64,000 bases of DNA from the NCBI GenBank assembly GCA_964344235.1, contig CAYFMJ010000001.1, forward strand, positions 88,664 to 152,663, given 5' to 3'. A program made the translations under genes and the position numbers. The notes beneath the pieces were generated by a model that saw only the letters and a list, made by a program, of their open reading frames with translations, made no database searches and was not told the origin of the DNA. Shown here in pieces: positions 34,992 to 59,053 of this stretch (the first letter of the stretch is position 1; each line of letters starts with the position of its first letter). Source of the DNA: an uncultured Methanosarcinales archaeon. GTDB taxonomy: Archaea > Nanobdellota > Nanobdellia > Woesearchaeales > GW2011-AR9.

Positions 34992-35291
34992 ATGGTGTTA
35001 ATTGTTGCTGAAAAAAAAGGACCACATGGTGTGTTGTTAGTTGTTACGGATAAAGATATTTTAGGGAAGATTTTTTCTGAAGGCAATGTGCAATTGGATT
35101 TAACGAAGCAGTTTTATGAAGGAAAAGAGAGAAGTGCTGAAGAGATTGCGCAACTATTTGGGAAAGCACGTGATATTCACTTTACTGGCAAAGAGGCCGT
35201 AGCGTTAGGTGTAGAGAAAGATTTAATTGATTCTGATAGGATATTGTATGTAGAAGGCGTCCCACATGCTGAAGTGGCTATTGGTGATTAA
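34992..35291 (+). CDS. Small conserved hypothetical protein (DUF424-like), translationally coupled to aIF2-beta
   Basis: Starts 2 nt after the aIF2-beta stop. 99 aa. No motif identified. Confidence 0.35.
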   Translation: MVLIVAEKKGPHGVLLVVTDKDILGKIFSEGNVQLDLTKQFYEGKERSAEEIAQLFGKARDIHFTGKEAVALGVEKDLIDSDRILYVEGVPHAEVAIGD

Positions 35292-38200
35292 CCCATAAAA
35301 GAACCCAAACCAACTTGCTTATCTTTTTCCCTACCGAAAACGGTGTCAACTTGCATTTCTAAGATTTCTAACGTTTGTTTAAGATAGGGAGAAAAGTCAT
35401 ATTTCTTTGCTAGCTCTAAGGAAGGACCAAGGTATTTAATCACAGAACCGTGGGAGATGGTAAAGATAATTTTGCCATTACAAGAAGTACACCTACCGGA
35501 AAGTGGAGGTCTTCTGAATTTGGAGTTACAGCTAACACAGCGGAAACCTTGCATGGAAAATTTCCGTAAGTTACCTTTGATATCTTTCAGAAAGTGTTTT
35601 TGGATAACTAACCGGGCAACGTCACCCATATCAACTGCGCGAACTTTTTGGGCAATATCCATTTGACCAAATAATTTTTCAGTCATCGAGGGAACGGTTT
35701 TATACGCAGAACATTGAACCCCTTTGTTGATGTTATCAACAAAATGAGTATAACCCATTTGCTCATACTGTAATTCTGTTCCTAGTCTATCGCCGATTTG
35801 TTCCACCTTTTTCTGCTCCTCTCCATACTTCACTTCCCACGGATTTTTCATCTCTAACGATGCTTCATACAGTTCAAGAGGGTATTTCCAGACAACGTCA
35901 ACACCGTGCACTTGATCGTCAACCTCTGCTGGGTTAAGAACAGAGGTAAGAACTAACGGTGCGTCCATTGTTTTTGCGCCTCTTCTATCAGGTAGGTATT
36001 GTCGTGAAAAATTGAGGAGAGCATCCATTAGCAACATCACGCATGCTTCATCGCCATCGCAATCCCTTCTCATGCCAGCGTGATAGAGAGGATGAGTAAT
36101 AAGGCCCTGTGTTTCGGAAGAGCCAATTATTCTCCCAACTAGGCCCGCTGAAATGTGTGGTGCTAACCCAATCACGAGATGACCAGCGAGGTCTTCTTCT
36201 TTCGTGATGTTGTAATATCTCTTTTGTCCATATAATTTTACAAGTAATTCATCAACAAAATTCGCAACACGGCTAAGAACTTTCGGTGCGGATTCTTCCA
36301 ACGAATCAAAACCAGGCAGGATAACATCTTGTGGAAACATTTCGAGGACTTGATTTGGGCCTGTTAATTCTTTACCGTGAATGTCTTTATGATACCCGAG
36401 TTCTTTGAGTTTTTCAATGGATGTTTTGATTTCTTTTGGTTTGAAGTGTGTTAAAGGGAGTTCTGTACAATCATAGCGAGTGGTCCCATCTTTGTTAACG
36501 TAGACACGATGTTTTGCCCGTAGTATTCCTTTGGAGAGATGTTCTACAACATGATCTTTGTTTGATGTTCCACGAACGCCTTTGATTAAATCGGGGAGGA
36601 GATTTTCTTTGATTAGTTTCTGGGCATGGTCAAGATAGTATTTTATGTCAATGTCACGTGTTTTAAATGATCTTGTTGGACCGTGACGGCAGGTTTCTTT
36701 ATCAACATCACCGCAAAAGCGACAATGATATTTCTGCTCGCAGTCTTTACTACACTTTTCGCAGACAGCATACACTGTTTCGGAATCGCAGGAAGTGCAA
36801 TAGAATAAAGGGAACGTGCTGCGTACTTTGCCTGCTTTCAACGCTGATTGAAAACTTCGGAGTCTATCTCCCTCGTCACCAACAGGAAACATCACTTGGG
36901 GAGAACCAGTCATGTGGCGCATTTTCGCTTTTTCTGGCCGGCCCATTCGTGCTCCAATAAATGTGCCTGCTTTATCTCTAAGAGTTGTATTACCAAGAAA
37001 ATTAATTACTTCTAATCCATTTTTCTCTGCGACAGTTTCGGAGGAGAGAGTGATTTTCTCCAGGCCTTCTTGGTCTTTGACATCAAAACAAAATGCGAGG
37101 ATTGTTGCTTCTTTCCGTTCTATAACTACATTTTCTTTACTGATAACTTGGTGGGGGATTCCCAATTCTTCTAGAATGCGCTTAGCTCTTGTATGGTGTT
37201 CATTTTGTTGGTTTAGGGGAACAATTATTTTTTTAATGCCTTTTTCGTCGATTTTTATTTTACCTTCTTGCAGCCATTGTTTCACGGTGAGGAGATCTTT
37301 TCCAGAAACAAGCGACCAATAAAAAGTGTAATCTGAGTGTAGTGGAACTGAGAAGGTTTTGCTTATTGTTAGTGCTTCTTCCCACGTTGGCTTTTGAGTC
37401 AAAGGTTTACGAGTGAGGTGGTCAAGACGTTCTGCAGTAATGTTTGTTTCTTTGGCTGCTTTTGCAAGAGGTTCTTGTTCAAAGCGAGTGTTGATTGCTT
37501 TCTCTACTTCTAACGCCCACCATTCTGGGCAATAACCAACTGGAACAAGAGAATGACCGTTCTCTGAGAAGTCTCCATAATTGAAGAGTATGTCGCCAAG
37601 GAAAAGGATCTCTTTAATTTTGGGAAAGTATTGTTTCGCTTCTTGTTCTGTGTTTAATTGTATGACAGAGCCATCTTCTAATGAAACGATGGGGCCATCA
37701 ATCGTTTCGCAGACCATTACTGTCGCTGCTTTTCCGGGTCTCTCAACTTTGAGTTGTGTGCCAATGGCAATGTATTTGTTCAGTACGACAAGAGTTGCGG
37801 GACTAAGAGCACAGGCAGAGAAGCCTGAGTTTCGCGTTCTACCGTAACGTAAACGGAATCCTCCGACGGCAAGAGGGTGAGTTAAGATTGGTCTACCTGC
37901 AACTAGATCCATGATGAATGTGTTGTTTGCTTTAACTTGTTTTTTCGCTGGTTCGTCATCTTTTTTCTCTTTCTTACTGCCGTGAGACGCGTGAATTCTT
38001 TCTTTCAGTGCGAGAAAGTCAGCAAGCCATTCCCATTCTAAATCAAAATCTTTTCCCCATTTCGATAATCGTTTCCATAATTTTGGCGCTTTTTGTGACA
38101 AACCTTCTGCTAATACTAACGCAACACCACCACGGATAAGGTTGGTGTCGATTCTTGGGAGGTCTTTGTAGTTTGATACTTCAAATTTTTCTGTAGGGTC

Positions 38201-38896
38201 ACCGTCAACTTCCACAGGAAGATGGGAGAGGAGAAATTTGAGTTCATCGTCAGAGGGATGGTATTGTAAGTTAGTAATACGTTCGTGGTAATCATGCACC
38301 TCGGCATTGTAACGGTTAATTTCAACTTCTTCCGGGTCGTAGGTAGCATAGCCCATTTTTACTCGTACATAATCGGCAAGAATTACCGAGGTAGAAGAAG
38401 CTGTTCCTCCTGCTGCTCTAATTGGCCCGGCATATTGCAGGGCAAAGTATTCTTTGCCATCTTTTCGTTTTTTGATTTTTAACCCAATAAACCCTTCAAG
38501 GGGAGCGGAAACAATACCGAGTGTAAGGTAGGCGAAGCCAACTCTAATACCTACTTCCATTGCTTCTTGTTTTGTTTCAAATGTACAGAAGGTTTGTTTG
38601 GCAACTTCTTCAGCAATTTTAAAACCAACTCGCCAATCTAGCTGGCCGTATTCTTGTTCAAGTTCAAGAATTCGTTCTGGGATTTTTGTACTCTCAATTT
38701 GTGGAGCAGCTACTGAGATAAGTCCTACAACACGTTCTGCCATGTTTTTTGCTACAGGAATTGGTACTGTTTTCTCTGGGTCAAGGCCTTTTTGGCGGGC
38801 TTTCGCAGCGAGGTTATAGCAATCTTTAACAGTAGTGTCTATTGATTTGAAATATTTCTGCATGGTGGGGGTTGCTGCGACGTCCATTTTATCCAA
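35288..38896 (-). CDS. polD2: DNA polymerase D large (catalytic) subunit DP2
   Basis: 1202 aa. Cys clusters (CPEWW..., CTSCDS...CEKCS, CRFCGD...CRHG). Overlaps DP1 in the operon. No intein. Confidence 0.9.
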   Translation of the reverse strand: MDKMDVAATPTMQKYFKSIDTTVKDCYNLAAKARQKGLDPEKTVPIPVAKNMAERVVGLISVAAPQIESTKIPERILELEQEYGQLDWRVGFKIAEEVAKQTFCTFETKQEAMEVGIRVGFAYLTLGIVSAPLEGFIGLKIKKRKDGKEYFALQYAGPIRAAGGTASSTSVILADYVRVKMGYATYDPEEVEINRYNAEVHDYHERITNLQYHPSDDELKFLLSHLPVEVDGDPTEKFEVSNYKDLPRIDTNLIRGGVALVLAEGLSQKAPKLWKRLSKWGKDFDLEWEWLADFLALKERIHASHGSKKEKKDDEPAKKQVKANNTFIMDLVAGRPILTHPLAVGGFRLRYGRTRNSGFSACALSPATLVVLNKYIAIGTQLKVERPGKAATVMVCETIDGPIVSLEDGSVIQLNTEQEAKQYFPKIKEILFLGDILFNYGDFSENGHSLVPVGYCPEWWALEVEKAINTRFEQEPLAKAAKETNITAERLDHLTRKPLTQKPTWEEALTISKTFSVPLHSDYTFYWSLVSGKDLLTVKQWLQEGKIKIDEKGIKKIIVPLNQQNEHHTRAKRILEELGIPHQVISKENVVIERKEATILAFCFDVKDQEGLEKITLSSETVAEKNGLEVINFLGNTTLRDKAGTFIGARMGRPEKAKMRHMTGSPQVMFPVGDEGDRLRSFQSALKAGKVRSTFPLFYCTSCDSETVYAVCEKCSKDCEQKYHCRFCGDVDKETCRHGPTRSFKTRDIDIKYYLDHAQKLIKENLLPDLIKGVRGTSNKDHVVEHLSKGILRAKHRVYVNKDGTTRYDCTELPLTHFKPKEIKTSIEKLKELGYHKDIHGKELTGPNQVLEMFPQDVILPGFDSLEESAPKVLSRVANFVDELLVKLYGQKRYYNITKEEDLAGHLVIGLAPHISAGLVGRIIGSSETQGLITHPLYHAGMRRDCDGDEACVMLLMDALLNFSRQYLPDRRGAKTMDAPLVLTSVLNPAEVDDQVHGVDVVWKYPLELYEASLEMKNPWEVKYGEEQKKVEQIGDRLGTELQYEQMGYTHFVDNINKGVQCSAYKTVPSMTEKLFGQMDIAQKVRAVDMGDVARLVIQKHFLKDIKGNLRKFSMQGFRCVSCNSKFRRPPLSGRCTSCNGKIIFTISHGSVIKYLGPSLELAKKYDFSPYLKQTLEILEMQVDTVFGREKDKQVGLGSFMG

Positions 38897-40613
38897 AGCG
38901 TAGTACTTTCACCTCTCTCGTTTTAAGGTTGACTGCTGGTACTCTTGATGGTTCGGGATCGTGACCGAGCTTTTCCTGAAAGGAAGTCATGCCCTGCCAA
39001 CAACTACCACAAATCATTGTGACCCCTTTGTAGTTAGCAACAGTAGAATAATGAATGTGACCCGTAATAAGGAAATCCGGGATCTGTTTGATTAGCAATG
39101 GATCTTCTTTGTGGGAAGGGTAGTAAGGCGTTGATTTAAATGAGGGAGCGAGGTGCCTGCGTTTAAGAAGAAATTTCATAATTAAATCAGAGCGGTGATA
39201 ACCTCCGTTCATTCGAATTGATTCAACATTAGCAACATAGTAGTCAAAACTGAAGCCGTGGTATAATAAAATGTTGAAGCCTTCGAAGTCTTTTGTTTTG
39301 CCGATATTAACGTAGGAAGGATTTGTAACGAGAGTGGCATTTGGGAGATCAAATAACGTGGGAGCAAATTTCTGGTAAAAAACAGGTTGAGGTTCTGCTA
39401 AATGAACCATGTCATGATTTCCAGGGCACATAATGATTTGTTTATCTTGCGGAATCTGTTTCATTAATCGGGCGAATTCCGCATATTGTTCTTTGATATC
39501 TGTAATGTCAAGTTCCTGTTCGTGAGAGGGGTAGATACCAACACCATCGACTAAGTCCCCAGCAATGATAATATATTTTGTTTTCCTCGCAATGTCACGT
39601 TGTTCTTCATTTCCTGCTTCTCCACGAACCCAACGGAGGAAACGGTTAAAGTCGTCAGTGAGAAAATATCTTGAACCAACGTGAATATCGGAAAGGAAGA
39701 TTGCATATTCTTCTTTGGGGCCTTTTTTCATTTCGTTATGACTAGGGATGTCTGGCCAGATGATATTGTCAGCAAAAATTATTTTATCTCCTGTTGTGCC
39801 AGAAACGCCAATCACTTCATCAACGACGAGATCTTTTGCTAGAGGATACAGTTCACGATTGTTTTTTGAGACGAATACTTTGATTCTACCTGTAGGGTCT
39901 TCTATTGTTATCATAATATTGCCATTTCGTGTTTCACCAATCTCTTCGACTACCCCAATAACTGCTGCTGATTCACGTTCTTTTTTGTGAAGCACACGAG
40001 AAATACTGGCGGTTGATTGTAATTCACGATGATTACGGAGAATGCTTTCCAAGAAGCGGTAGCGGGAAGTGAAAAAGTTTGTGAAGTCTCTGATAGTGTA
40101 TTTATGTGGAATGTTTTCGTAGGATAGGATGACCGTTACTGCAGAGGTGGTTGAGAGTGAAGAGGAGAGAGAGGTGGTTTGTTGTAGCGCTTCAATATTT
40201 TTTTCAGGCTGAATAATCATGGCTTCTGTTTCGAAGGAAGTTGCTGGCGTGTCTTCAGCAAGTGCTGTTTCAAGGCTTGAGATTTCTGTTGTCGGTTGTT
40301 GTATTTTTGAAGGGATTTTAAGAAGTAAGGATGATTTACTTGTTTCTTGTAAATGGGATTGGTACAGTTCGTCATCTCGTTCTTTTTCTGCATCAACACG
40401 AAGTTTATCTGTTTCATACCAATCAATAAGTGTTCCTTGTTGATTAAGGATGACTGAGTAATCGGAGTTAAGGACGAGTAGGTCTGCTTCGGATTCAATT
40501 TTTTCGAAGAGAGATTCGTCAAAGTTATCAAGCATTTCTTGGTTTAACAAAATACCCTTCTCAAAGAGTTGTTCAATCAGTTCCTGTTTTTTCTTTGATA
40601 ATTCTTCTGGCAT
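38889..40613 (-). CDS. polD1: DNA polymerase D small (exonuclease) subunit DP1
   Basis: Calcineurin-like phosphoesterase motifs: IAGDLVDGVG, GNHD and HIHY. 574 aa. Confidence 0.9.
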   Translation of the reverse strand: MPEELSKKKQELIEQLFEKGILLNQEMLDNFDESLFEKIESEADLLVLNSDYSVILNQQGTLIDWYETDKLRVDAEKERDDELYQSHLQETSKSSLLLKIPSKIQQPTTEISSLETALAEDTPATSFETEAMIIQPEKNIEALQQTTSLSSSLSTTSAVTVILSYENIPHKYTIRDFTNFFTSRYRFLESILRNHRELQSTASISRVLHKKERESAAVIGVVEEIGETRNGNIMITIEDPTGRIKVFVSKNNRELYPLAKDLVVDEVIGVSGTTGDKIIFADNIIWPDIPSHNEMKKGPKEEYAIFLSDIHVGSRYFLTDDFNRFLRWVRGEAGNEEQRDIARKTKYIIIAGDLVDGVGIYPSHEQELDITDIKEQYAEFARLMKQIPQDKQIIMCPGNHDMVHLAEPQPVFYQKFAPTLFDLPNATLVTNPSYVNIGKTKDFEGFNILLYHGFSFDYYVANVESIRMNGGYHRSDLIMKFLLKRRHLAPSFKSTPYYPSHKEDPLLIKQIPDFLITGHIHYSTVANYKGVTMICGSCWQGMTSFQEKLGHDPEPSRVPAVNLKTREVKVLRFG

Positions 40614-40647: not shown

Positions 40648-41850
40648 TTATGTGATCTGTAATGATTTTTCCAATAGTTCTCTCAGTTTTATAGTGAGGT
40701 TTTCTTCTAGAGGGCAGGTGATTTCTCGCGTTCTGCCATAACGACCTTTGGAAATTATTTTGGCGTTAATGATACCGAGCATGTCAAGTTCCGCTAGAAT
40801 GTCTGAGATCCGTCTCTGTGTAAGAACGTTGAAACTTGCTTTTTTACAAATAGAAGAGTACACATCATAAATTTCCCCCGTAAAAAAGCGACGTTTCTCG
40901 GGAGCGATAAGAAGTATTGAATAGAGAACTGTCTGAAATTGTTTTGGTTGACCTAAAGCTGCGCTTACGATTTTATCTGACTCTACTTTTTGTTCGGCTT
41001 CGTCAAGATGTTGGATTTCAATATTCGAAGAACCTTTGCGCTCAGCTAATTCTCCGGCAACTCGAAGTAGATCTATCGAGCGACGAACATCACCATGTTC
41101 ACGAGCGGCGTAGGCAGAGCATTTTTCGATGACTCCTACTTGAATAACGCTCTCTTGAAACGCTATAGCAGACCGTTTACGGAGAATATCTTGAATTTGG
41201 AGTGCATTATATGGAGGGAAGATAACTTCTTCCTCTGATAATGAAGATTTAACCCGAGGATCGAGGTTTTCTGCAAAAATGAGGTTGTTGGAAATCCCAA
41301 TAAGACAAATTTGCGAGCGACGAAGCTCCGCGTTGATTCTTGTTAAGTTATAGAGAATCTCATCCCCTATTTTTTTTGTTAGTTGATCGATTTCATCAAG
41401 TACAAGAAGAACAATTTGTTCTTGTTGATCAAGTAATTGGTAGAATGTACTATAGACTTCATCAGTGGGTAAGCCTGTTGAGGGAACTTCTTTACCAAAT
41501 TCTTTGATTAATTGGGCGAGTAAGCGGTATTCAGTATCGGCAACCCTTTTTAATTTGCAGTTGAGGTAGATTGGTTTAAGAGGAACTCTATTTTTTTCTG
41601 CTATCTCTGCCATGGAAGTGAGAATATGTTTCATAGAAAGGGTTTTGCCCGTTCCTGTTTTGCCATAAATGAAAAGGTTAGAAGGGCGTTCCATCCTCAA
41701 AGCTGGAGCAAGAATATTCGCGACCTCCTGAATTTGTTCTTCTCGAAAAAGAACGTTATCAGGCATATAGGATGAAAGAAGAGCTGATTTATCGTTGAAC
41801 AGAGAATCCTTTGCTAGAAAGTTTTCGAAAAAGTTACCTATTTGTACCAT
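40648..41850 (-). CDS. cdc6: Orc1/Cdc6 replication initiator
   Basis: AAA+ Walker A GKTGTGKT. Walker B LVLDEID. C-terminal winged helix. Adjacent to the AT-rich origin. Confidence 0.9.
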   Translation of the reverse strand: MVQIGNFFENFLAKDSLFNDKSALLSSYMPDNVLFREEQIQEVANILAPALRMERPSNLFIYGKTGTGKTLSMKHILTSMAEIAEKNRVPLKPIYLNCKLKRVADTEYRLLAQLIKEFGKEVPSTGLPTDEVYSTFYQLLDQQEQIVLLVLDEIDQLTKKIGDEILYNLTRINAELRRSQICLIGISNNLIFAENLDPRVKSSLSEEEVIFPPYNALQIQDILRKRSAIAFQESVIQVGVIEKCSAYAAREHGDVRRSIDLLRVAGELAERKGSSNIEIQHLDEAEQKVESDKIVSAALGQPKQFQTVLYSILLIAPEKRRFFTGEIYDVYSSICKKASFNVLTQRRISDILAELDMLGIINAKIISKGRYGRTREITCPLEENLTIKLRELLEKSLQIT

Positions 41851-42539
41851 ATAATCCCCTCGTTTTTTGCTAAATGTGGTAAGCGAATACCAGGAACCCC
41901 CTTATTTCCTGTGGAAACTTGTATTCTGCTTTTGTTTTGGGTAACAATTTTTCATGAATGATGTGTAGTGTTACCCAAATGAGTGTATTGGTGTTACCAA
42001 GACACCTTAATTTCTTATGGAAGTAGTTTAAATAGTTATTGCTGGATTAATGAGTAGTAACTAATAGGTGTTCTTGAAAATATTTTTTAGGAAAATTGTT
42101 TTTGAGTTAACGGAATTTGTTGTTGTGTTGTTCTTTTTGCTTTATTTTTTATCATTTATTTGTTATTTTATTGTTATAATTATATATTATATTATTATTT
42201 TCAATATAGAAATAATATAATAATAATAGAGAGCAAAGTGCTTGAATGAAAATTGAATTTTGTTTTTTGTTGTTGTAGTTGAGTTTCCATGTGAAATTAT
42301 TTCATTTATTATTATTATTGTTTAAGGTATGTAATAGTAGTAGTAGGGACGTGTATTATGCAACAAACAAACAGTCTGATTTTTTTCAAAATTACATTTT
42401 CCATAAGAAATGAAGGGGTGCTGCTTACTACACTAGCGTTTTCTACGACTATTTCTCTTTGTAGTGTAGGCAGACGGACTTTTTCTACTGAGTTTAGTAT
42501 ATAAAAACATTTAAATAGTTTTAAGAGGGTATTTCCAGC
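41851..42539. other. Chromosomal replication origin (oriC): mini-ORB boxes flanking an AT-rich DNA unwinding element
   Basis: ORB-like TTCCTGTGGAAAC at 41905-41918. Inverted pair tttcttatggaag (42011-42023) and ttccataagaaa (42397-42410). An 80-85% AT tract with tta/tag triplet runs at 42121-42340. Directly upstream of orc1/cdc6. Confidence 0.65.
42497..42509 (+). promoter_or_regulatory. TATA box (agtatataaaaac) for the 42540 gene
   Basis: About 30 nt upstream of the ATG. Confidence 0.35.
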
Positions 42540-43400
42540 ATGGTTCTTGAATCATTATTTAATCCATTTACTGTTAAGAAACGCCCACTCCATATGTTTG
42601 GAGCTGGTTTTCTGTATGCAGTTGTTGCATTATTTCTTTCATACTTTGTGTTTAGAGAAGGTGCAGGGCTATTAATGGTGTTTCTGATAGTGATGGCGAC
42701 ATTGCCAACGTTGTATCAAACTATTAAGAATGAAGAGGAGTTAGATTTACAACTTGAGGGGGAATGGAGATTGTTAAAGGAGCATACGAAAGTACTTGTG
42801 TTTTTTATGTTTCTGTTTTTAGGAATTACTGCAGCATTAGCGATGGCGTATGTGTTCCTACCACAGGGAATGATTGATGGAGTGTTTCATTTACAACAGG
42901 AAGCAATTGTTAGTGTGAATCAGCAAGTACAGGGGGTAGCAGAAGTTACAGGGGATATTACAAAGTTTGGTTTATTTGGGAAAATTTTTTTGAATAACAT
43001 TAAAGTTCTCTTTTTCTGTTTGATTTTTTCGTTTTTGTATGGAACAGGCGCGATATTTATCTTAACGTGGAATGCTTCAGTGATAGCGGCAGCAATGGGG
43101 AATGTTGTAAAAGCAAAGATTGGGGCAGCGGGAGCGATGGTTGGTTTTGGCGGTATTGCGACATATTTTAGTGCAGCTGCGTTTAGTTTCTTTCGGTATA
43201 TGACGCATGGTTTGTTGGAGATTGCAGCGTATTTTGTCGCTGGTTTAGCAGGGGGAATTATTTCTATAGCGTTGATTAAACATAACTTGAAAGAGGAGAA
43301 AGTGTTAGTTGATGCAGTTGATTTAGTGTTAATAAGCTTGGGTTTACTTGTAGTAGCGGGAGTTGTAGAAGTCTATGTTACTCCTCTGTTGTTTGCTTAG
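42540..43400 (+). CDS. Polytopic membrane protein (SpoIIM/DUF95-like)
   Basis: About 6 TM helices. Resembles stage II sporulation protein M-family membrane proteins. Confidence 0.35.
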   Translation: MVLESLFNPFTVKKRPLHMFGAGFLYAVVALFLSYFVFREGAGLLMVFLIVMATLPTLYQTIKNEEELDLQLEGEWRLLKEHTKVLVFFMFLFLGITAALAMAYVFLPQGMIDGVFHLQQEAIVSVNQQVQGVAEVTGDITKFGLFGKIFLNNIKVLFFCLIFSFLYGTGAIFILTWNASVIAAAMGNVVKAKIGAAGAMVGFGGIATYFSAAAFSFFRYMTHGLLEIAAYFVAGLAGGIISIALIKHNLKEEKVLVDAVDLVLISLGLLVVAGVVEVYVTPLLFA

Positions 43401-44083
43401 AGAACTTTGACTTTACCAGGTTGGTTTTGGAAGATGTCTCCTTTCTCTAACATTTTTTCAAGCATCTTTTCTGTATCTGGCACTGTAGATTCAGCAATAA
43501 CGGTTTCTATTAACACTCCCTCTCCTTCGTCGAGCGTTTCAATAAGTTTTGCAATTTTTTCAAATGGCGGAATGTTTTCCGCTGGTTCTTGAATAATCTC
43601 TACGGAGGGTGTTGGTTTGGGAGTTTGTTGGGAAGGTTCCTCTGCTGTTTCTTTAGGAGGTTCTGTTACTTGTGTTGTTTGCTGTGTTGGCATTGTTTTT
43701 TGTAATTCCAATGAACGTAACTTTAACCATAAAGGATCAAGTTTTTTGATAATTTCTGGAGAAAGGTACTTTTCTTCGTTATATACTCTTACTTTCCCAA
43801 CAGCAAGTACGATGCTTCCAACAGTAAGGGCATCAAAGTGTTTGTTTTCCTCAAAAGAACGCGCAGTAAGAGTCGAGGTTCCGTCATCTAGAAGGAATGT
43901 TGTTATGGTTCCTGCTTTTTCTTTCTGGACAATTGTTGCAATAATATTAACACGGTATAATTTTTCACTGGTTTCTGTTAAAAGGTAATTATGTTCTTCC
44001 GCTTCCTGGACAAACGTTCCTGCCGTAATGTTCCGAATAGTTGTTTTACATGCAACGTGCCTTCTATATTTTGTTGTTTCCAT
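43397..44083 (-). CDS. OB-fold plus C-terminal winged-helix protein (RPA32/Stn1-like), translationally coupled to MCM
   Basis: Central OB-like beta region (YRVNIIATIVQKEK...VLAVGKVRVY). An acidic/Pro-rich linker. A C-terminal wH-like segment. Its start shares a nucleotide with the MCM stop. Confidence 0.45.
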   Translation of the reverse strand: METTKYRRHVACKTTIRNITAGTFVQEAEEHNYLLTETSEKLYRVNIIATIVQKEKAGTITTFLLDDGTSTLTARSFEENKHFDALTVGSIVLAVGKVRVYNEEKYLSPEIIKKLDPLWLKLRSLELQKTMPTQQTTQVTEPPKETAEEPSQQTPKPTPSVEIIQEPAENIPPFEKIAKLIETLDEGEGVLIETVIAESTVPDTEKMLEKMLEKGDIFQNQPGKVKVL

Positions 44084-46104
44084 TATAACCGCTGGATAAA
44101 GCCCCTCTTTGGTTCGAAGATGTCACCGGAGCGCCGAAGTTTTTCAAGCAATTCTTCAACTTTATCTTGTGGGATGTTTTTTTCTTGCGCTGCTTCGATG
44201 ATGTTTTCAACAGGAATAATTTTACTGGATAATTGCTCTTCCATCGCACTAATAATTTCTTTAATAGAACTAATACCTCCTCGTTGCGTAGCAGTGATTC
44301 TGCTGCTTAGTCTATCGATATCAATTTGTCCAGTTTCGGAATCTTTGGCAATTTGATTTAAACAATAGTCAACAAGCTCAATGGCTTTCTGTGCATCAAC
44401 TTTTGTTACTTTTTGTGCCAAGCGAATTTTGGCAGCAGCTTCAGCTAGTCTAACGAGCCCTTCCAATTGACGGGCGGTAATAGGAATACTTTTGACTCCA
44501 CTTTCATCTGAAATTCCAGAGTTACGCATTTTAACATAGTATTCTTTAATCTCTTCGATTGCTTCGTCAGTAATTTGTGGTTGAATTCTCTGACGAACAT
44601 AGGAAAAATATTTTCGTAGTAGCTCCGTTGGAATTTCAGACATACCTTTCTCAGGGTTTTTGTGTAGGCCAAGAATAAACGAAGCGGTTCGTTCATCTTT
44701 TTCCCGACTCGGCATGTCTTTTACTGGAAAAATGAGGTCAAACCGGTTAATTAATGTTGGAGGAAGGTTAATTTGGTTGGCAATTAAGTCGTAGGGGTCA
44801 AACCGGCCAAACTTTGGATTTGCTGCAGCAATAACAGTGGTTTCACAGCGTAAAGTTGCTTGGATATTTGCTTTAGAAACGCTCACGGTTTGCTGCTCTA
44901 ATGCTTCGTGTAGGGCGGAACGATCCTCTTTGGTCATTTTATCCATCTCATCAATAACTGCAAAGCCTTTATTTGCTAATACTAATGTTCCTGCTTCTAA
45001 ACTCCAGCCACCAAGGAATTCATCTTTGACGACACTTGCTGTTAGACCGGCAGCAGTTGCGCCTTTTCCTGAAGTGAACCTCGCTTTTGGAGCAACTTTT
45101 GTGATTCGTTTAAGAAGTTGTGATTTCCCTGAACCAGGATCTCCGATCAGAAGTACGTGCATATCCCCTCTTGTAATGACACCATCAGGACGGACTTTCC
45201 GACAACCACCTGCTAGTTGTAAAACAAGCGCTTCTTTGATTTTATCGTGCCCATAAATGGAAGGGGCGATGCTGGAAGAGATCATGTTAAGTGGATTTTC
45301 ACCGGCAGCAATTTCTTTGATTTGTTCCAAGTCTTTGTCAGAAATTTTCATATCAACGGAATCATCTTGCACTGGTTCAACGAAATTAGATTCCAAGATT
45401 AAATCGTATTTTGTTGCTTTCCCTCCAGAACGGAGAGTGATGGGAACTTCAGTTACCCAGCCGGAAAGAATAACTCTCGACCCAGGACTTGATTTCCGTT
45501 CTGAAATTGGAGACACAAGATCATCTTTAAGGAAGACGTTGATCCGTTTAGGTTGTGCTCCGTCTAACTCATCCGGTGCTTCTTCTAGCACTAAACCTTG
45601 GCCGTCAACAAGTTCTTTTGAAATTTCTTTGAACTTTCCTTTTCTACCGCAGCCACATCGTGTTGGTTCTTTGTATTTCTGATCTAACTGCAGGACGTTA
45701 AGAATATTACCGCAGGAAGGGCATTCAAACTTGGCAGCGGTTACATGGGGCCGTACATTAGATTTTTGCCGGACAATGCCTTCCATCCAGACAAATTTTT
45801 CAAGATGTTTACTTCGCACCTCGCTAATCAAAATTTTCTGTGACTCTGGCAGGTTTTTGAGCCTGACTGTGAATTTAGTGATTTTTTTTGGAAGGTCAAA
45901 TTCTTTGACTGCTATCTCTGCTGCTTTAAGAAGTTCTTGTGGGGCTTCCAGGAGTTCGTCTGTGATGTCGGGGTTGAATTTAAGAAGTTCTGCAAAGTCT
46001 AATACTAAATATGTTTGGCCTTTACGAACTGCTTCAAGAAGTTGTGGATGATAATTTTGTTCGATAAATTCTCTAAATACTTTAATTTGTTCGTCGACGT
46101 CCAC
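44083..46104 (-). CDS. mcm: MCM replicative helicase
   Basis: Zn finger CPSCGN...CGCG. Walker A GDPGSGKS. Walker B IDEMDKM. Arginine finger region. 673 aa, no intein. Confidence 0.9.
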   Translation of the reverse strand: MDVDEQIKVFREFIEQNYHPQLLEAVRKGQTYLVLDFAELLKFNPDITDELLEAPQELLKAAEIAVKEFDLPKKITKFTVRLKNLPESQKILISEVRSKHLEKFVWMEGIVRQKSNVRPHVTAAKFECPSCGNILNVLQLDQKYKEPTRCGCGRKGKFKEISKELVDGQGLVLEEAPDELDGAQPKRINVFLKDDLVSPISERKSSPGSRVILSGWVTEVPITLRSGGKATKYDLILESNFVEPVQDDSVDMKISDKDLEQIKEIAAGENPLNMISSSIAPSIYGHDKIKEALVLQLAGGCRKVRPDGVITRGDMHVLLIGDPGSGKSQLLKRITKVAPKARFTSGKGATAAGLTASVVKDEFLGGWSLEAGTLVLANKGFAVIDEMDKMTKEDRSALHEALEQQTVSVSKANIQATLRCETTVIAAANPKFGRFDPYDLIANQINLPPTLINRFDLIFPVKDMPSREKDERTASFILGLHKNPEKGMSEIPTELLRKYFSYVRQRIQPQITDEAIEEIKEYYVKMRNSGISDESGVKSIPITARQLEGLVRLAEAAAKIRLAQKVTKVDAQKAIELVDYCLNQIAKDSETGQIDIDRLSSRITATQRGGISSIKEIISAMEEQLSSKIIPVENIIEAAQEKNIPQDKVEELLEKLRRSGDIFEPKRGFIQRL

Positions 46105-46217
46105 GTAAACCCCCCTTACTTTTGTTGTATTCTACCAAAAAATAGATTATTTAAAGATTTAGGTGGTATTTCAGAAGGGTTTTTATTGGAAAAAATAAGA
46201 ATGAAAAAATAAGAAAT

Positions 46218-46775
46218 CTATTTGTTAAGAACTTTCTTGAGGTTTTCGATTAATTGATCAGTTGCTTCGTGCACCGCTTCCTCAGTCTTTGTTCCAGTAC
46301 AGACGATTTTTCCATTACTGAATAAGAGGAATGTTGCGTTTGTTCCCCGTAACTTGTGTACTAAACCAGGGAATTGTTCTGGTTCGTATTCCGTGTTTGG
46401 TAGCTTTAAACCAAGCACGTTTAAGTTAAGATCCATACCAATACTACCGGACGCTACAATGTTTTGCACAGTGATTTCTGGTTTAATAGTTACAGTGATG
46501 TCTAATTTTTTAAGACTTCGAATGATACTCTGGATACTTCTATCGACATCAGCTAGGGTTCTTGCTCCTGTACAGACAACTTTTCCGCTGGAGAAGATTA
46601 ATGCAGACGTTTTTGGGTCTTTAATTCGTAGTACAAGCCCAGGAAATTGTTCTGGGTTGTATTCTGTGTTGGGCAGCGTTGCCGCCATTTTTTCTAATGG
46701 AATATCTTTTTCTAGTCCTGTGGATACTACGATGTTTACAATACGAATATTTTTCTTTGCAGCTTTCTTTGCCAT
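46218..46775 (-). CDS. tbp: TATA-box binding protein
   Basis: Two TBP repeats (VNIVVSTGLEKDIPLEKMA... and QNIVASGSIGMDLNLNVL...). 185 aa. Confidence 0.9.
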   Translation of the reverse strand: MAKKAAKKNIRIVNIVVSTGLEKDIPLEKMAATLPNTEYNPEQFPGLVLRIKDPKTSALIFSSGKVVCTGARTLADVDRSIQSIIRSLKKLDITVTIKPEITVQNIVASGSIGMDLNLNVLGLKLPNTEYEPEQFPGLVHKLRGTNATFLLFSNGKIVCTGTKTEEAVHEATDQLIENLKKVLNK

Positions 46776-49828: not shown

Positions 49829-50311
49829 ATGGAGAATATTGTGTTGAAGGAAGGTCTTGGGGGAGATTTTGGTAGTTCTAAGCTCGTTTCTTTGATTGAA
49901 GGCAAAACGAAAAAAGAATTACTGTCTAATTTGAAAATAAATAAAGGAAAAACAACAGTTTATAGGGCTTTGAGTGAGGAGATGTTACGGTTTGCTTTGG
50001 AAAGAACTGATGTTGATATTGTGTTGGGAATGGAGGGTATTCATTACAAAGATCACACACATTACCCTCGTGGCGGTTTGGATCAGATTACAAGTAAAAT
50101 TGCTGCTGCGAAAGGTAAGACTATTGGGTTTTCGTTTGCGGATATTTTGCGTTCGAAAGATAGAGGAAGATTATTGGGTAGAATGATGTTGAATATTCGG
50201 TTGTGTAAGAAGTATAATGTCAAAATGGTGTTTAGTTCATTTGCCTCTTCAAAATCGGAGATGCGAAGTACAAAAGATTTGGAAGCATTTTGGCGCATTC
50301 TTTCTCGGTAG
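49829..50311 (+). CDS. RNase P protein subunit Rpp30-like (short)
   Basis: PHP/TIM-barrel-like pattern (VDIVLGMEGIHYKDH...IGFSFADIL...KMVFSSFASS). 160 aa, which is shorter than typical Rpp30. Confidence 0.45.
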   Translation: MENIVLKEGLGGDFGSSKLVSLIEGKTKKELLSNLKINKGKTTVYRALSEEMLRFALERTDVDIVLGMEGIHYKDHTHYPRGGLDQITSKIAAAKGKTIGFSFADILRSKDRGRLLGRMMLNIRLCKKYNVKMVFSSFASSKSEMRSTKDLEAFWRILSR

Positions 50312-50358
50312 CGTTAATAACATTTATAAACAATGGTTGTTTGTTTTTGAGTATACTT

Positions 50359-53300
50359 ATGGTGGAGAAAAAAAGAGGTTTAGTTTTAGTAGTCTTTGTT
50401 GCTTTTCTAGTAGTGATGAGCGTGGGTGTTTTAGGTGTTCCTGACAAGAATACAGATGCTTTTCCAACCATTGGACACCGGGCCGATTTAGGTTATGAAT
50501 ATGATCAGGGTTGTGGTTCTTATGATGTTGACGATTGCCCGCAAGGTGACACTTACAAGCTAGATGAAGATCACAGTACCTGTTCTGCATCAGGAAGCGA
50601 TTTGTCTCCTTTATTCGATGCCTGTAAAATTTTTTTTGTCGATAAAGATGAGGGAAATGATGATGGGGGGTTTGGGCTAGCAGATGAGGGTTATATTCTA
50701 GACTCAGTTGGCTACGAAAAACTTGGCCTTCACAGCTATGAGAAAGTCTGTGGGCAAGAAGGAGACCATGATAATGATGGGGTTGAGGGGCTAAAAGGAG
50801 CGAAGTTTAAAGCAGCTGATAATACTGCATATATTTGTGGAAATAACCTGGGAGAACCAAATAAATGGTATAAATGTACTTCAGAGACGCTTGACACTGT
50901 AACATGGGCAAACGGTGACTTATATAATTGTACTTTCAGTGCTAGTACTGGCTTTCCAACTTGGAAAAACGAAGGAGGGGATACGGACTTTGATACTTTT
51001 GCTCAAGAGGTAGATTGTAAAGATAACCCCCCGAGTGGATCCTGTTTAAACCTGGCACCAGAAGATTGTGCAAGCTCTCCTGAAAATTATGAATGCCCAC
51101 AGTGTATTAACCCTGATGCGCCTGAGGTATGTGGAGATGGCAAAAACAATGATTGCAATGAAGCGACTTCTGATAACTGTCATGATAATCAGGCAGCATG
51201 TGAGGCACTTGACACGGCAGTTGGTTGGAATATTCATGATGAGAAATATGCTTGGCAACAAACGGGAAGCGAGGGAGCCGGTTTCTGTTGTGGATTCAGT
51301 GGAAGTGGTGATGGTAATGTAGGGGAGGTGTCGGAGAGTATTGGTGGCACTAACAAGCTATGTGTGAATAAAGAATATACCACAACAAACGGAGAGATTT
51401 CATCAAGTGAGACCGAAGGAGTTGAGTGTAGTGGATCTGGGTGGTGTTTAGTGAGCGCAGTTGTTGGGTCTAAGTTTCAGATATACACTATTGCAGAACC
51501 GGAAAAAGAACCTTATGATGTTGTTTCCAATGGAGATAATTGGTATGAATGTAGTAGCAGCTACCATGAACCTCTGCTACCGGAAGATACAGGTGTAAGG
51601 ACAAAGGCTAATGCGTTTTACTGCTTCGATGAGGGAAATCATTGGAGTTGGGCTGAATGTCCTTTAGGGGAAGAGGGTGAAGTTGAAAGCGAGAATAGCG
51701 GTACGACTAAAATTAGGCACAAAGGAGATGGATTATATCAGCTGTTTCCAACAAATGATAAAAACCAGTTTGGAGTTTTGGTAGATGCAAAGGATCCAAT
51801 TTACACAAGTTTGTATAGTGAGGATTTCTTGTTAGATTTTAGCGGATATAACCAATTGAATTTTATGATTCAGTTTCTGAGTGAAGTAACCCTGCCAGCT
51901 GATGTTAAGGTGCAAATTTATGGTTCTGATGATGAGCTGAAATGGCAAGGGAATGTTCTTGGCTTTAGTACTAATAATCCTGTGCTAGTTGCAGATACGT
52001 TCTTTCATGTGCAAGTTCCCATTGCTCCGTTTAAAGATGTTGAGAAAGTTCTGATAGAGAGTATTGGCGACTTCAATCATATTGAGGTGAAGAATATTTA
52101 TATGAGTGTCCAGGGAGAGCAACCCTACTTGTGTTCGGCAAAGCAATCAAACCAACCACAACAACCAGCATGGTTGACGAATGCAGATGACATTATTGAA
52201 AATACATTGATTACTGGAGAAAATATTTGTAATGAGTTGTATGGTGGCTGGTTAGGAGATGAAGTAGATGATGTCGAAAGAAGGTGTTGTGGTGATGATG
52301 TGGGGGAATATTATGCTGGCCCAGGAAAGAACGGTTGTTGGAATTCTGAAGTTGTTGTAGGTGGGGGAACAATGATGAATGCTCAAGTTGAGGTTACGTC
52401 ACAATATTCAACAGTTGGAGAGGTTGAGGGTGTAGCAGTGAGAACTGTTACATTTGAGTGGGACTATGCAACGCCTTCAGAGGATCCGGTGACTCTTACG
52501 GATGCTGAGTGTAAGCAATATACAAAAGAGCACAATTGTCCTATTGGCTGTAAGTGGGTAGCTGATTACGGGGTTGGATGTATTGCATTAAATGCAGATG
52601 CGATTATTGCTGCACCAACTTCAGGCGTTAATACGCAAGAAGCTTCAATTGAGATTGAGTATGATGGCTCTACTGTTTCGCCGAAGTCTATCACACTGAA
52701 AGAATTGGGGTTTGAGGTTGAGGGTGTTGAATCAGGAGAGTTATCTATAAACACGGGAATCGAACTCTTCATTGCTGGCTCTTTTCAAGATCACGGTGAT
52801 GAATTCGAGTTTTTCTCTGAGAGCGATTATATTTTAGGAAATAATCAGTTTGAAGTTGGCGATTTTAAAGATATTAGCTTTTCCTTTGTTCATGATGATA
52901 ACTACTATGAAAATAATAAAGAAACGGTGAAGAAGCTTGTTGTTGGTACTCAACCAGAGGAAATGATGAAAACGTATTCGTGCTCTCAAGCGGCGTGTAC
53001 GTTCCCAATTCCGGGGTTTCCACCGTATACTATCAGTAACCCGTTCCCTGATTTATATGAGATATATTTTGTTGATGGACCAGGAATTGATGATAGACAT
53101 CCAATTGATAAGAATGGAAAGACGTTTGATCAGGTAGGGAATGTTGAAGTCACAAAGGTTGCACAGCAAGTTGTGCTTGTTAATAGTGATACAGAGCATC
53201 AATTTTATGGTTGTGCGCCTTCGCAAACGTTAATTAACAGTATTCCTACAGAAGATCAAGATAGTTTCACTGCATTAAGCCATTGCGCGGTGAAAGCAGA

Positions 53301-55209
53301 TAGGTTTTGTTCATTTAGTTACACGGAGGATGGCGTGACAACAATTAATTCGTGGAGTGACGATGCTTTAGAACATGTTGGGTATGAAGCGTTAGAAGAT
53401 GATCCGAAGGAGTTGGAGGGTTTGCATAATTTACAATTGAAAACACTGCCTACTAACGAACAAGAGATAATTCCACCTACGGATAGAAATTGGTCGACAA
53501 CTGCTTTCCCAGGACAGAATATTTTACCAAATGCGTTGTTTGAAATTGATAGTCAAGGAAGTGTGAAAAGAATTGCCCATTGGGTTGTTATTGATAGTGA
53601 AGGGTTAGAAGTTTCGAATGTTAATGCGAAACATATCCCTTTTGATGATCCAGAGAGGGTAGAGTTGGGAGGTGGAGAGATTCTAAGATCTTCTAGGATA
53701 GCACTGCCGCAAGGTGTTGATGAAACAATGGCGTTATCGCATGAGGGAGAAGGGGTGAAAGAGAGTGTTATTTTAGTTGATGGTGAAGGGGATATTGATA
53801 TTGTAAATGATGGAGAGTTCTCTACAGACGGTGCAGGGTATGTGGTAATTGAATTTACAGGACCTGGAAGTGTGGCACAACCGATCTTACAATTTGTCGA
53901 TGAAGATTTTGAACCTGTTGCATTCCATTATGATGGGGAAAAACAAAAAGTGCAAGAAAATTTTCAGGAACGTGCAGGAGTAGCATGTTGCCCACAGGAT
54001 TGGTGCTGGAATGGGTATACATGTGCAGAGCCGATGAGTGAAAATACCTTCGCAGCAGAGTTACTGCCAGATAATAGAACGTATAGGTGTGTAGGGGGAG
54101 AGTGGACAGAGCTGCCTGTAAAGAGAGATTGGAACGTGGCAGGATTTGGGTTTTGCGAACAAAAGGATCAGTGTTTCGTGACAAGTTCGTTAATGGGTGG
54201 CGATAATACTGCTGAGGCGATTGACTTTTACAATGGGAATTATCCAACCTGTGTTGACGATGGAGAGTTTATTTTCGACCATTACTGTGATGCCGGTAAT
54301 TGGACTTCACGAACGAAGTTTATTGCATCGGAGTTATTAGATGCGATTGGTGAGACAGATGAATATGCACTGTATTGTGATTCGTTTGAGAAAGTTCTTC
54401 CACAATTAGATGGGCATGATTTATTGTTTAGTGGGGAGTTGGTAGCGGATGCAGAAGTGGTTGGTTCAATTAGTGACCAGTTAGGGGGAGTGGAACCAGA
54501 ACAGACGTTTATACAGGTGTGCTTTGAGAATGTGAATAATAATGAACGAGGTAGAGAGTTAGTACCAACAGACCAGAATAAATGTGTGAATAATGTCTGT
54601 GTGTTGCAGTATAAACAGGGTGGAAAGAATAAAGTAGCGTTTGCAGCGTCTTTGAATCCGGCAGAGAACTCTTTCTTGACAGCGTTTGATATTCCAGCAG
54701 GAGAGGTAGCAACGTTATGTGGTGGTGAAGGGTTTAATGATTGTAATGTTGACCTAGCAGGGGACTTTTGGTATTCAGAAGAGTTAGATGCGTTTGTGTA
54801 TGGGAAAGATGGAATAGATTTAGATACAGGGTTCTTTGGAGGAATTCTGGATTTCTTTAGTGGTTTATTTGGTAATGGTATTGCGGAAGAGAATACGGAT
54901 TTTATTGCACAAGCGGAGAATTATCGAGATGTATATGTGTTGCAGCATGAGAATAAATTGGTTCGAGCGATTAAAGAGCAGCAAGGTCAGAAAGAGATTC
55001 TAGTAGCGGAGTTTGAAGGGTTTCAATCGCCAGTGTGTGAGTACGTGGAGAATGTTGGGTTGCCTGAGAAGCCAGCGTTTGAAGGGGCAACGAGCGTGGA
55101 TTTGGTGTGTAGTAGTGAGGAAGGCGTGCAGAAGTTTGAATTAGTTGATGATACGGATGTGTTCTGGGATCGGTTTGCGGGAAGGTTGAGGCCGCAAGAG
55201 AGTAGTTAG
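50359..55209 (+). CDS. Giant (about 1616 aa) Cys-rich secreted/surface protein
   Basis: The track ORF is 50290..55209. The likely true start is the ATG at 50359, followed by a signal anchor LVLVVFVAFLVVMSVGVLG. Acidic, with many Cys including CCG motifs (GFCCGFSG, RRCCGDD, VACCPQDWCW). No C-terminal anchor. Confidence 0.6.
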   Translation: MVEKKRGLVLVVFVAFLVVMSVGVLGVPDKNTDAFPTIGHRADLGYEYDQGCGSYDVDDCPQGDTYKLDEDHSTCSASGSDLSPLFDACKIFFVDKDEGNDDGGFGLADEGYILDSVGYEKLGLHSYEKVCGQEGDHDNDGVEGLKGAKFKAADNTAYICGNNLGEPNKWYKCTSETLDTVTWANGDLYNCTFSASTGFPTWKNEGGDTDFDTFAQEVDCKDNPPSGSCLNLAPEDCASSPENYECPQCINPDAPEVCGDGKNNDCNEATSDNCHDNQAACEALDTAVGWNIHDEKYAWQQTGSEGAGFCCGFSGSGDGNVGEVSESIGGTNKLCVNKEYTTTNGEISSSETEGVECSGSGWCLVSAVVGSKFQIYTIAEPEKEPYDVVSNGDNWYECSSSYHEPLLPEDTGVRTKANAFYCFDEGNHWSWAECPLGEEGEVESENSGTTKIRHKGDGLYQLFPTNDKNQFGVLVDAKDPIYTSLYSEDFLLDFSGYNQLNFMIQFLSEVTLPADVKVQIYGSDDELKWQGNVLGFSTNNPVLVADTFFHVQVPIAPFKDVEKVLIESIGDFNHIEVKNIYMSVQGEQPYLCSAKQSNQPQQPAWLTNADDIIENTLITGENICNELYGGWLGDEVDDVERRCCGDDVGEYYAGPGKNGCWNSEVVVGGGTMMNAQVEVTSQYSTVGEVEGVAVRTVTFEWDYATPSEDPVTLTDAECKQYTKEHNCPIGCKWVADYGVGCIALNADAIIAAPTSGVNTQEASIEIEYDGSTVSPKSITLKELGFEVEGVESGELSINTGIELFIAGSFQDHGDEFEFFSESDYILGNNQFEVGDFKDISFSFVHDDNYYENNKETVKKLVVGTQPEEMMKTYSCSQAACTFPIPGFPPYTISNPFPDLYEIYFVDGPGIDDRHPIDKNGKTFDQVGNVEVTKVAQQVVLVNSDTEHQFYGCAPSQTLINSIPTEDQDSFTALSHCAVKADRFCSFSYTEDGVTTINSWSDDALEHVGYEALEDDPKELEGLHNLQLKTLPTNEQEIIPPTDRNWSTTAFPGQNILPNALFEIDSQGSVKRIAHWVVIDSEGLEVSNVNAKHIPFDDPERVELGGGEILRSSRIALPQGVDETMALSHEGEGVKESVILVDGEGDIDIVNDGEFSTDGAGYVVIEFTGPGSVAQPILQFVDEDFEPVAFHYDGEKQKVQENFQERAGVACCPQDWCWNGYTCAEPMSENTFAAELLPDNRTYRCVGGEWTELPVKRDWNVAGFGFCEQKDQCFVTSSLMGGDNTAEAIDFYNGNYPTCVDDGEFIFDHYCDAGNWTSRTKFIASELLDAIGETDEYALYCDSFEKVLPQLDGHDLLFSGELVADAEVVGSISDQLGGVEPEQTFIQVCFENVNNNERGRELVPTDQNKCVNNVCVLQYKQGGKNKVAFAASLNPAENSFLTAFDIPAGEVATLCGGEGFNDCNVDLAGDFWYSEELDAFVYGKDGIDLDTGFFGGILDFFSGLFGNGIAEENTDFIAQAENYRDVYVLQHENKLVRAIKEQQGQKEILVAEFEGFQSPVCEYVENVGLPEKPAFEGATSVDLVCSSEEGVQKFELVDDTDVFWDRFAGRLRPQESS

Positions 55210-55210
55210 A

Positions 55211-55301: not shown

Positions 55302-55352
55302 CCTATCACGAAAGTAATTAATTTTATAAGATAGAAGTGATTAGGTGTTTCT

Positions 55353-58987: not shown

Positions 58988-59053
58988 TGCGTTTCTTCCA
59001 CGGTAGGCAGCTACAAACATTTATAAACGGCAACTGTTTCTTGTAGACGTAGA

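Follow-up and report, generated by a model that had tools for sequence, protein, structure and literature searches.

The subject of this work is a 689-nt spacer located between an orc1/cdc6 initiator gene and a divergently oriented gene for a SpoIIM-like membrane protein in a genome of the archaeal order Woesearchaeales (DPANN; deposited as an uncultured Methanosarcinales archaeon, assembly GCA_964344235.1). The spacer lies within a stretch of 64,000 nt, which we will call the window (contig CAYFMJ010000001.1, positions 88,664 to 152,663 of the forward strand). Judging from its sequence, this spacer corresponds, in Woesearchaeales, to the archaeal oriC1 module, that is, a putative platform of the Orc1-binding type. 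Converging origin recognition boxes (ORBs) here bracket a unique tract resembling a DNA unwinding element (DUE). We infer that the module either is the canonical origin of the order or descends from it. At the same time, it is probably not the place where the replication arms diverge, because the G- and T-rich bias of the + strand continues through it unbroken.

The elements of the spacer are listed below (positions are those of the window; scores in bits refer to the ORB matrix described thereafter).

41851-42539, no strand: spacer between orc1 and the SpoIIM-like gene, 689 nt
41896..41918, + strand: ORB-L1, full ORB ACCCCCTTATTTCCTGTGGAAAC (C-string and dyad core), exact core; 30.5 bits, rank 2
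41936..41979, unstranded: perfect 11-bp inverted repeat TTTGGGTAACA / TGTTACCCAAA with a 22-nt loop, between ORB-L1 and ORB-L2 in the presumed orc1 leader
42002..42024, + strand: ORB-L2, full ORB with a degenerate C-string, ACACCTTAATTTCTTATGGAAGT, exact core; 28.6 bits, rank 3
42027..42037, unstranded: TATA-like TTTAAATAGTT, a direct repeat adjoining ORB-L2; candidate orc1 promoter
42131..42330, unstranded: AT-rich candidate DUE between the converging ORBs
42283..42305, - strand: mini-ORB with the core TTTCACATGGAA at 42285-42296 and without a C-string, exact core; 8.8 bits with the extended matrix
42397..42419, - strand: ORB-R, full ORB ACCCCTTCATTTCTTATGGAAAA, exact core; 33.8 bits, the best matrix match of the window
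42510..42520, + strand: second copy of the direct repeat TTTAAATAGTT, 20 nt upstream of the start codon of the SpoIIM-like gene and, by this position, its candidate promoter

Six exact matches to the core sequence TTTCNNNTGGAA are present in the window, the expected number being 1.2, and a count this high was not attained in any of 100 shuffles. Four of the six fall inside the spacer, where ~0.065 would be expected under uniform placement (binomial P estimated at ~2e-7). Two of these copies are on the + strand (41905 and 42011) and two on the - strand (42285 and 42399), all converging on the centre. We also built a 23-nt ORB matrix from relatives only, for which the shuffle maximum was 21 bits; the three full ORBs of the spacer took the first three places in the window with the scores given above, and the next site reached 16.4 bits. 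With such core and matrix statistics, clustering of the boxes by chance is excluded. In the three full ORBs a C-string stands 5' of the dyad core TTTCnnnTGGAA, and the fourth box is a mini-ORB. ORB-L1, found 46-68 nt upstream of the orc1 start codon, the mini-ORB, which forms an inverted repeat with it, and ORB-R are all aimed at the AT-rich centre. Within the candidate DUE, the segment 42131-42231 is 90% AT and less stable than any other 100 bp of the 64 kb (dG -95 kcal/mol versus a mean of -130 kcal/mol, z 5.8).

An earlier note on this DNA had described mini-ORBs in a gap of 690 nt after orc1/cdc6. The gap is there, one nucleotide shorter, and so are the boxes, although there are four of them instead of three, arranged + + - -, and three are full ORBs carrying a C-string. 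The box TTCCTGTGGAAAC singled out in that note occupies positions 41906-41918, inside ORB-L1, and no other site of the 64 kb differs from TTCCAGTGGAAAC by one mismatch or less. Its supposed agreement with the Pyrococcus mini-ORB in 12 of 13 positions has to be revised, since the P. abyssi 13-mer given in PMC1904270 is TTCCAGTGGAACT and the window box agrees with it at 10 of 13. The inverted pair tttcttatggaag (42011-42023) and ttccataagaaa (42399-42410) was correctly recognized; its left arm belongs to ORB-L2 and its right arm to ORB-R, and it extends to arms of 37 nt that are 76% complementary. The AT content of 80-85% ascribed to the central tract agrees with the 83.8% that we measured over 42140-42330.

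Several other candidates in and around the spacer were set aside. The 11-bp hairpin at 41936-41979 is lineage-specific, as its sequence GGGTAACA is not enriched upstream of orc1 in relatives; a partial third copy of this repeat, GGTGTTACCAAG, lies at 41990-42001. A search of the whole window against Rfam at gathering thresholds gave no match to any non-coding RNA, and no tRNA was found; relaxing the limit to E up to 1 on 41700-42700 gave just a 24-bit snoRNA chance match, and an RNA-based explanation of the gap was rejected. An ORB-like sequence in the 5' part of the gene for TATA-binding protein (TBP), CCGCCATTTTTTCTAATGGAATA at 46682-46704, has the exact core and 16.4 bits, which is inside the shuffle range.

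The architecture of the spacer is shared by relatives. Our comparison included 160 orc1 loci, 80 from species-representative genomes and 80 from metagenomes. In these loci, the 1.5 kb upstream of orc1 contain the core at 34 times the density of the remaining sequence. Usually, a single core copy is situated 23-100 nt from the orc1 start codon, accompanied by one or two copies in inverted orientation, typically 400-900 nt away; throughout the order, an inverted full ORB is maintained distally, at 350-1200 nt from orc1. The aligned instances give a longer box of ~23 bp, A-CCCC-(T/C)T-n-A-TTTC-nnA-TGGAA-A, and an unbiased 8-mer enrichment of the upstream regions recovered mainly words derived from it. 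The least stable 100 bp fall upstream of orc1 in 73 of 75 loci (6.3 expected), and in all 44 loci having converging ORBs the least stable tract is found between them. All of the strongly skewed lineages discussed below, the window included, retain converging full ORBs and the unstable centre. A TATA-like octamer occurs 2-14 nt from the orc1-proximal ORB core in 20 of 135 loci.

Variations on this layout were also observed. In most close relatives (L001-L104), the proximal ORB lies at -23 to -35, and its G-string GAGGGGGT (orc1 sense strand) ends a few nucleotides before the start, thus overlapping the likely ribosome-binding site; the window has its proximal ORB further off (-46 to -68), with a separate GAGGGG ahead of the orc1 ATG. 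A distant orc1 clade (L108-L152, ~58-62% identical) has a close pair at about -170/-90 (minus) and -30 (plus) instead of widely spaced converging copies. In three loci with identical orc1 (L082, L083 and L084, from the sister assemblies ERR2281800 and ERR2281801), the contigs are shorter and end within the spacer, 225, 358 and 87 nt upstream of orc1, so the AT-rich centre is a recurrent assembly break point.

Strand composition tells a different story from that of the motifs. It was followed over ~77 kb of the 412,874-bp contig, i.e., over the window and its flanks (L165 and L168; about 9.4 kb on the left and 5 kb on the right) taken from the copy held by the European Nucleotide Archive (ENA; ERZ930065 k127_123329, 121,556 bp). 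The + strand consists of 24.6% G, 15.4% C, 27.8% A and 32.2% T. In 46 of 47 genes, G exceeds C at the third codon positions of the + strand. The pooled skew at these positions (GC3 skew), always read on the + strand, is +0.51 for genes on + and +0.32 for genes on - to the left of the spacer, and +0.53 and +0.38, respectively, to its right. The corresponding AT3 skew is negative on both sides, with T exceeding A on the G-rich strand, and DNA outside open reading frames (ORFs) has a skew of +0.20 on the + strand. Cumulative skew climbs monotonically over all 64 kb, and the same polarity is kept as far as 7.9 kb to the left of the window and 4.7 kb to its right. The third-position skew does not change sign at the spacer, and within this record of window and flanks a V-shaped minimum of cumulative GC3 skew at 41.9-42.4 kb is excluded. 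Since the GC3 skew has the same sign for + and - genes, the asymmetry is not an artefact of gene orientation; it is the usual replication-type signature.

With skew of this strength, a bidirectional origin would be expected to show up as a sign switch. The only available proxy of activity therefore contradicts the role of principal bidirectional oriC that the earlier note implied for this locus: the skew shows no inflection here, and an inflection located elsewhere had been named in that note as the refuting outcome. A weaker trace, namely a step in skew magnitude left by partial origin firing, was looked for and rejected, the difference in strand component being small (-0.53 upstream versus -0.41 downstream of orc1). 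Nor is there a consistent step across the module in relatives, its direction being inconsistent among L034, L038, L059, L072 and L076.

Most relatives show almost no strand component at all, and a scattered minority is strongly skewed, to the same magnitude as the window. Read on the orc1 strand, the strongly skewed lineages behave as follows.

Negative on both sides of orc1: window, L034, L038, L097
Positive on both sides of orc1: L059 (CAMAVK010000001.1, 568 kb), L072, L076 (DAOWKC010000002.1, 636 kb)
Switching from -0.64 upstream to +0.53 downstream: L061 only

Thus, in seven of the eight strongly skewed lineages (the window and six of the seven relatives), no switch occurs at the module, and this holds for either polarity. 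Polarity differs even between close relatives, such as L051 and L059 (85% Orc1 identity) or L034 and L061 (79%). Such a distribution agrees with a locus that lies inside a replichore and can face either way.

The genes on the two sides of the spacer are the following.

35288..38896, - strand: large subunit DP2 of DNA polymerase D (PolD); Pfam PolC_DP2_N, central and catalytic domains, E 1e-87 to 1e-116
38889..40613, - strand: PolD small subunit DP1; Pfam DNA_pol_E_B, Metallophos and OB; NCBIfam NF003118, 457.8 bits (cutoff 445)
40648..41850, - strand: orc1/cdc6 initiator of the Orc1-1 (oriC1) type; Pfam Cdc6_C winged helix, Cdc6_lid and AAA; TIGR02928, 401 bits (cutoff 181)
42540..43400, + strand: SpoIIM-like membrane protein gene, divergent from orc1; Pfam SpoIIM, E 9e-15
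43397..44083, - strand: RPA32-like OB-fold protein; P. abyssi RPA32 chains 8AAS_B and 8C5Y_B at E 3.5e-11; Pfam OB fold
44083..46104, - strand: MCM replicative helicase; Pfam MCM_N, MCM_OB, MCM, MCM_lid and MCM_WH_arc
46218..46775, - strand: TBP; Pfam TBP, two repeats, E 1.5e-57

DP2 is the last gene of the orc1-DP1-DP2 operon (the ENA gene call has 1199 aa and starts at 38887), and the RPA32-like gene overlaps the stop codon of MCM, belonging to the same operon. Among solved structures, the orc1 product (400 aa) is closest to S. solfataricus Cdc6-1 (2QBY_A, 1e-101) and A. pernix ORC1 (2V1U, 2e-91), and its nearest homologues carry the source labels Woesearchaeota or Nanoarchaeota. The order TBP-MCM-RPA32-SpoIIM-spacer-orc1-DP1-DP2 was found again in independent assemblies, the SpoIIM-like gene keeping its position in syntenic relatives, e.g., L034 and L059. 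The wider neighbourhood is composed of housekeeping genes, including those for PCNA, a class I (Trp/Tyr-type) tRNA synthetase, an isocitrate/isopropylmalate dehydrogenase and eIF2-beta. Paralogues within the genome are almost lacking for the stretch that we followed.

Matches to Pfam, TIGR02928, NF003118 and the RPA32 structures bear out the calls of cdc6, DP1, DP2, MCM, the RPA32-like gene and TBP made in the earlier note. The cdc6-DP1-DP2 order that it likened to Thermococcales is also present (the arrangement is described in PMC1904270). Two details need correction. The polD genes occupy 35288-40613 and thus lie outside the interval 40648-46775 to which they had been assigned. MCM does stand on the flank across the origin, as had been said, but it is not directly adjacent, because an overlooked SpoIIM-like gene (42540-43400) precedes the RPA32-like gene.

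As side observations, DNA-metabolism genes are concentrated within ~50 kb (PCNA, Hjc, PolD, Orc1, MCM and RPA32), the PCNA gene being found at 4587-5333 after an RNase J-like gene. A GyrA-type gene (DNA_topoisoIV and gyraseA_C, 870 aa) and an ScpB gene are located just left of the window (L165:2525-6147; 4.3-6.9 kb before its start). A free-standing LAGLIDADG_3 homing-endonuclease-like ORF of 251 aa lies at 2357-3112 between a hydrolase gene and the RNase J-like gene. The segment 47672-49736 holds genes for a ThiF-like E1 protein, an ATP_bind_3 protein (Ncs6/TtuA-like) and a small ThiS/SAMP-like protein beside a THUMP/ThiI-ferredoxin gene and RNase P p30, and looks like a cluster for tRNA thiolation or SAMP. 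A row of giant genes with a common orientation extends from 50290 to 64000, and up to ~65240 on L168; their products have 1616-1639, 855, 356 and 2061 aa. No Pfam match is on record for the first three, and the one of 2061 aa gives only weak matches of the CarboxypepD_reg type; the 356-aa and 2061-aa products share a 106-aa segment of 43% identity. These giant gene products are probably surface proteins. A seemingly ORF-free stretch of 3.7 kb at 59-62.7 kb turned out to be the 2061-aa gene running past the window end.

Among known systems, the closest parallel in gene order is the oriC of Pyrococcus and the Thermococcales (PMC1904270), where the origin is likewise directly upstream of cdc6/orc1, followed by the genes for the small and large PolD subunits. 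In vitro, Cdc6 binds P. furiosus oligonucleotides of ORB1, ORB2 and ORB3, which read CCCCC-AGAGTTTCA-TTTCCACTGGA (PMC1904270). The fixed core positions are the same, with TTTCnnnTGGAA here and ATTTCCACTGGAA in P. furiosus, and the C-string is 5' of the core in both cases. Likewise, longer ORBs are mixed with 13-bp mini-ORBs, and inverted ORBs bracket AT-rich DNA. There are also differences. The C-string is 3-4 nt from the core here versus 9 nt in P. furiosus ORB1 and ORB2, making a box of ~23 bp versus 34 bp. The second ORB/mini-ORB cluster that Thermococcales have in dp1 is missing, as the dp1 gene of the window (38889-40613) contains neither an exact core match nor a matrix hit above 4 bits. 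The other flank is also unlike that of Pyrococcus in carrying MCM, the RPA32-like gene and TBP. Finally, the oriC of P. abyssi is bound by Cdc6/Orc1 in vivo, as seen by chromatin immunoprecipitation, and was mapped by two-dimensional gels and replication initiation point mapping (PMC1904270), whereas the present locus is a candidate predicted from its sequence and lacks a skew switch.

Another likeness is with the oriC1 of Sulfolobus and of A. pernix, where ORBs consist of a dyad element and a G-string and are inverted around the DUE; the initiators most similar to ours (2QBY and 2V1U) come from these organisms. These are the two initiator structures solved on ORB DNA. The short spacing between dyad and G-string in the window is, we presume, similar to that of A. 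pernix ORB4. The A. pernix ORB measures 22 bp (PMC1904270), about the same length as the box described here. Sulfolobus and A. pernix differ in having several origins with distinct initiators. The sequence hallmarks of the oriC1 type are all found at the locus: an adjacent Orc1-1 gene, ORBs with a TTCC...GGAA core, inverted ORBs flanking an AT-rich tract, and conservation of the whole. The box cores are the same as in the P. furiosus ORBs bound by Cdc6 in vitro, and the initiator is close to those of the ORB-bound structures, which supports the idea of an Orc1 platform. Overall, the module is at the sequence level a member of the known oriC1 type, and in this organism it is likely passively replicated or fires in one direction.

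The scenario to which we lean, tentatively and with slightly less than even confidence, is that the module acts here as a dormant, secondary or mainly regulatory Orc1 site and is replicated passively from a start located left of the window. By analogy with established archaeal models, Orc1 would bind the converging boxes, distort the DNA and recruit MCM onto the AT-rich centre. ORB-L1 and ORB-L2, placed between the TATA-like element and the orc1 start, would probably let Orc1 repress its own orc1-DP1-DP2 operon, with ORB-L2 possibly acting as operator of the candidate orc1 promoter. As the compositional record suggests, forks would cross the module from the polD side toward the MCM side. There are precedents for an idle module of this kind: a dormant origin is known in Haloferax mediterranei (PMC4595724), and in Thermococcus kodakarensis both the ORB-bearing oriC and Cdc6 are dispensable (PMC5663688). 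As in these two archaea, a well-formed ORB origin next to cdc6 need not be the replication start. The kind of evidence is different, being replication profiling and deletion there and compositional skew here, and T. kodakarensis has no clear skew, in contrast to the very strong skew of the present genome.

Several observations weigh against passive replication of the module. Converging full ORBs and the unstable centre are kept in all strongly skewed lineages, and a distal ORB 350-1200 nt away is unneeded for autoregulation, so that origin function seems to be under selection. In L061 (JAHFQW010000020.1, L061:9072-10001) the skew does switch at the module, the cumulative-skew minimum falling at -879, at the distal ORB. 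The upstream genes of this locus are different, with eRF1, an AAA kinase-like gene, an ABC-2 transporter and SecDF replacing SpoIIM-RPA32-MCM-TBP, and the switch may be that of a genuine two-armed origin, or it may come from a rearrangement or a chimeric join in the AT-rich spacer. The origin that a skew minimum predicts for the DPANN archaeon Forterrea adjoins cdc6 (PMC5905446). That minimum makes the expectation of a switch legitimate, and its failure here informative. Furthermore, no alternative origin was seen in the ~77 kb of contig that we followed. Skew itself is an indirect and slow record of fork direction.

The main rival of passive replication is that the origin is active but effectively unidirectional, or adjoined by a fork barrier, with one leading strand running round the whole small genome. 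We regard this as an unlikely but serious explanation. It accounts for the conserved architecture, since an ORB-DUE-ORB module fully conserved in every strongly skewed lineage argues for an origin still in use, and it agrees with a skew that is uniform over ~77 kb with a keto-rich (G and T) + strand. Comparable patterns have been read in this way in bacteria: a one-strand G/C disparity over whole genomes of small-genome episymbionts was attributed to unidirectional theta replication (PMC7143001), and skew patterns of some bacteria were interpreted as rolling-circle replication (PMC7111523). The candidate phyla radiation (CPR) bacterium Ch65 (PMC7143001) is the closest case, being a small-genome lineage of episymbiont type in which one strand is G-enriched whatever the gene orientation, with a skew of ~0.33 versus ~0.23 here. 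Still, Ch65 is a bacterium with DnaA-type replication and a closed genome, whereas we deal with ~77 kb of an archaeal contig. What unidirectional firing does not explain is the direction itself, which varies between lineages. In the window, L034 and L038, forks would head away from orc1, and in L059 and L072 they would enter it, in spite of the same local synteny, and direction differs even between close relatives, which is awkward for a hard-wired one. A dyad-symmetric module with full ORBs on both sides predicts that two helicases are loaded, and L061 has a normal two-armed pattern. We also know of no archaeal case of unidirectional replication, which counts against this rival.

It is less probable still, and in our opinion rather improbable, that the module is the principal chromosomal oriC firing bidirectionally, the uniform bias being unrelated to forks or not yet re-equilibrated. 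Every sequence hallmark of oriC1 is present and conserved, the spacer adjoins genes for an Orc1-1-type initiator, PolD, MCM and RPA, and skew minima lie beside cdc6 in L061 and Forterrea. However, a bias unrelated to forks is difficult to reconcile with an asymmetry that is independent of orientation, extends to third positions and non-ORF DNA (+0.20) and couples G>C with T>A. A recent inversion or misassembly that would hide the switch was considered and rejected: third-position skew is equally strong on both sides, hence no recent rearrangement, and the synteny recurs in independent assemblies. Moreover, when an origin is part of an inverted segment, the switch stays with it. Even occasional firing is not visible, as the six relatives without a switch show no consistent step in skew magnitude. 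Of all readings, a principal bidirectional oriC agrees least with the local skew.

Finally, a long divergent promoter or leader with no replication role in any lineage, in which the boxes are an operator for Orc1 or another factor or a chance AT-rich pattern, would agree with the proximal ORB lying 23-35 nt from the orc1 start, over the ribosome-binding region, in most relatives, with the recurrence of a TATA-like octamer plus ORB in 20 of 135 loci and with the missing skew switch, but is very unlikely, given that chance is excluded, that a simple operator needs neither the conserved distal inverted full ORB (350-1200 nt) nor the unstable tract, that the core equals that of the Pyrococcus ORBs bound experimentally by Cdc6 and that L061 switches skew at the module.

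In the literature that we searched, we found no sequence-level description of DPANN replication origins and nothing specific on GC skew or ORBs in Woesearchaeota or DPANN. The locus described here, together with its 160 relatives, gives a clear ORB consensus for Woesearchaeota, a compact 23-bp box made of a C-string and a dyad core, and the conserved ORB-DUE-ORB layout can be used to anchor and orient metagenome-assembled genomes. It also exposes a mismatch between a textbook origin and the compositional record, as the module usually has no skew switch in strongly skewed lineages. Consequently, placing oriC by cdc6 and ORB motifs alone can mislead, and so can assembly checks that expect a skew minimum at cdc6. 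In several Woesearchaeota, a strong replication-type asymmetry passes through the conserved origin; if it is chromosome-wide, which makes for a possible but doubtful scenario, these genomes would be replicated in one direction, either from the canonical origin or independently of it. This would be an archaeal parallel to the proposal made for Ch65 and, to our knowledge, the first archaeal case, found in DPANN genomes. For these small genomes, the options for replication are a second origin, a dormant canonical origin or one-directional replication.

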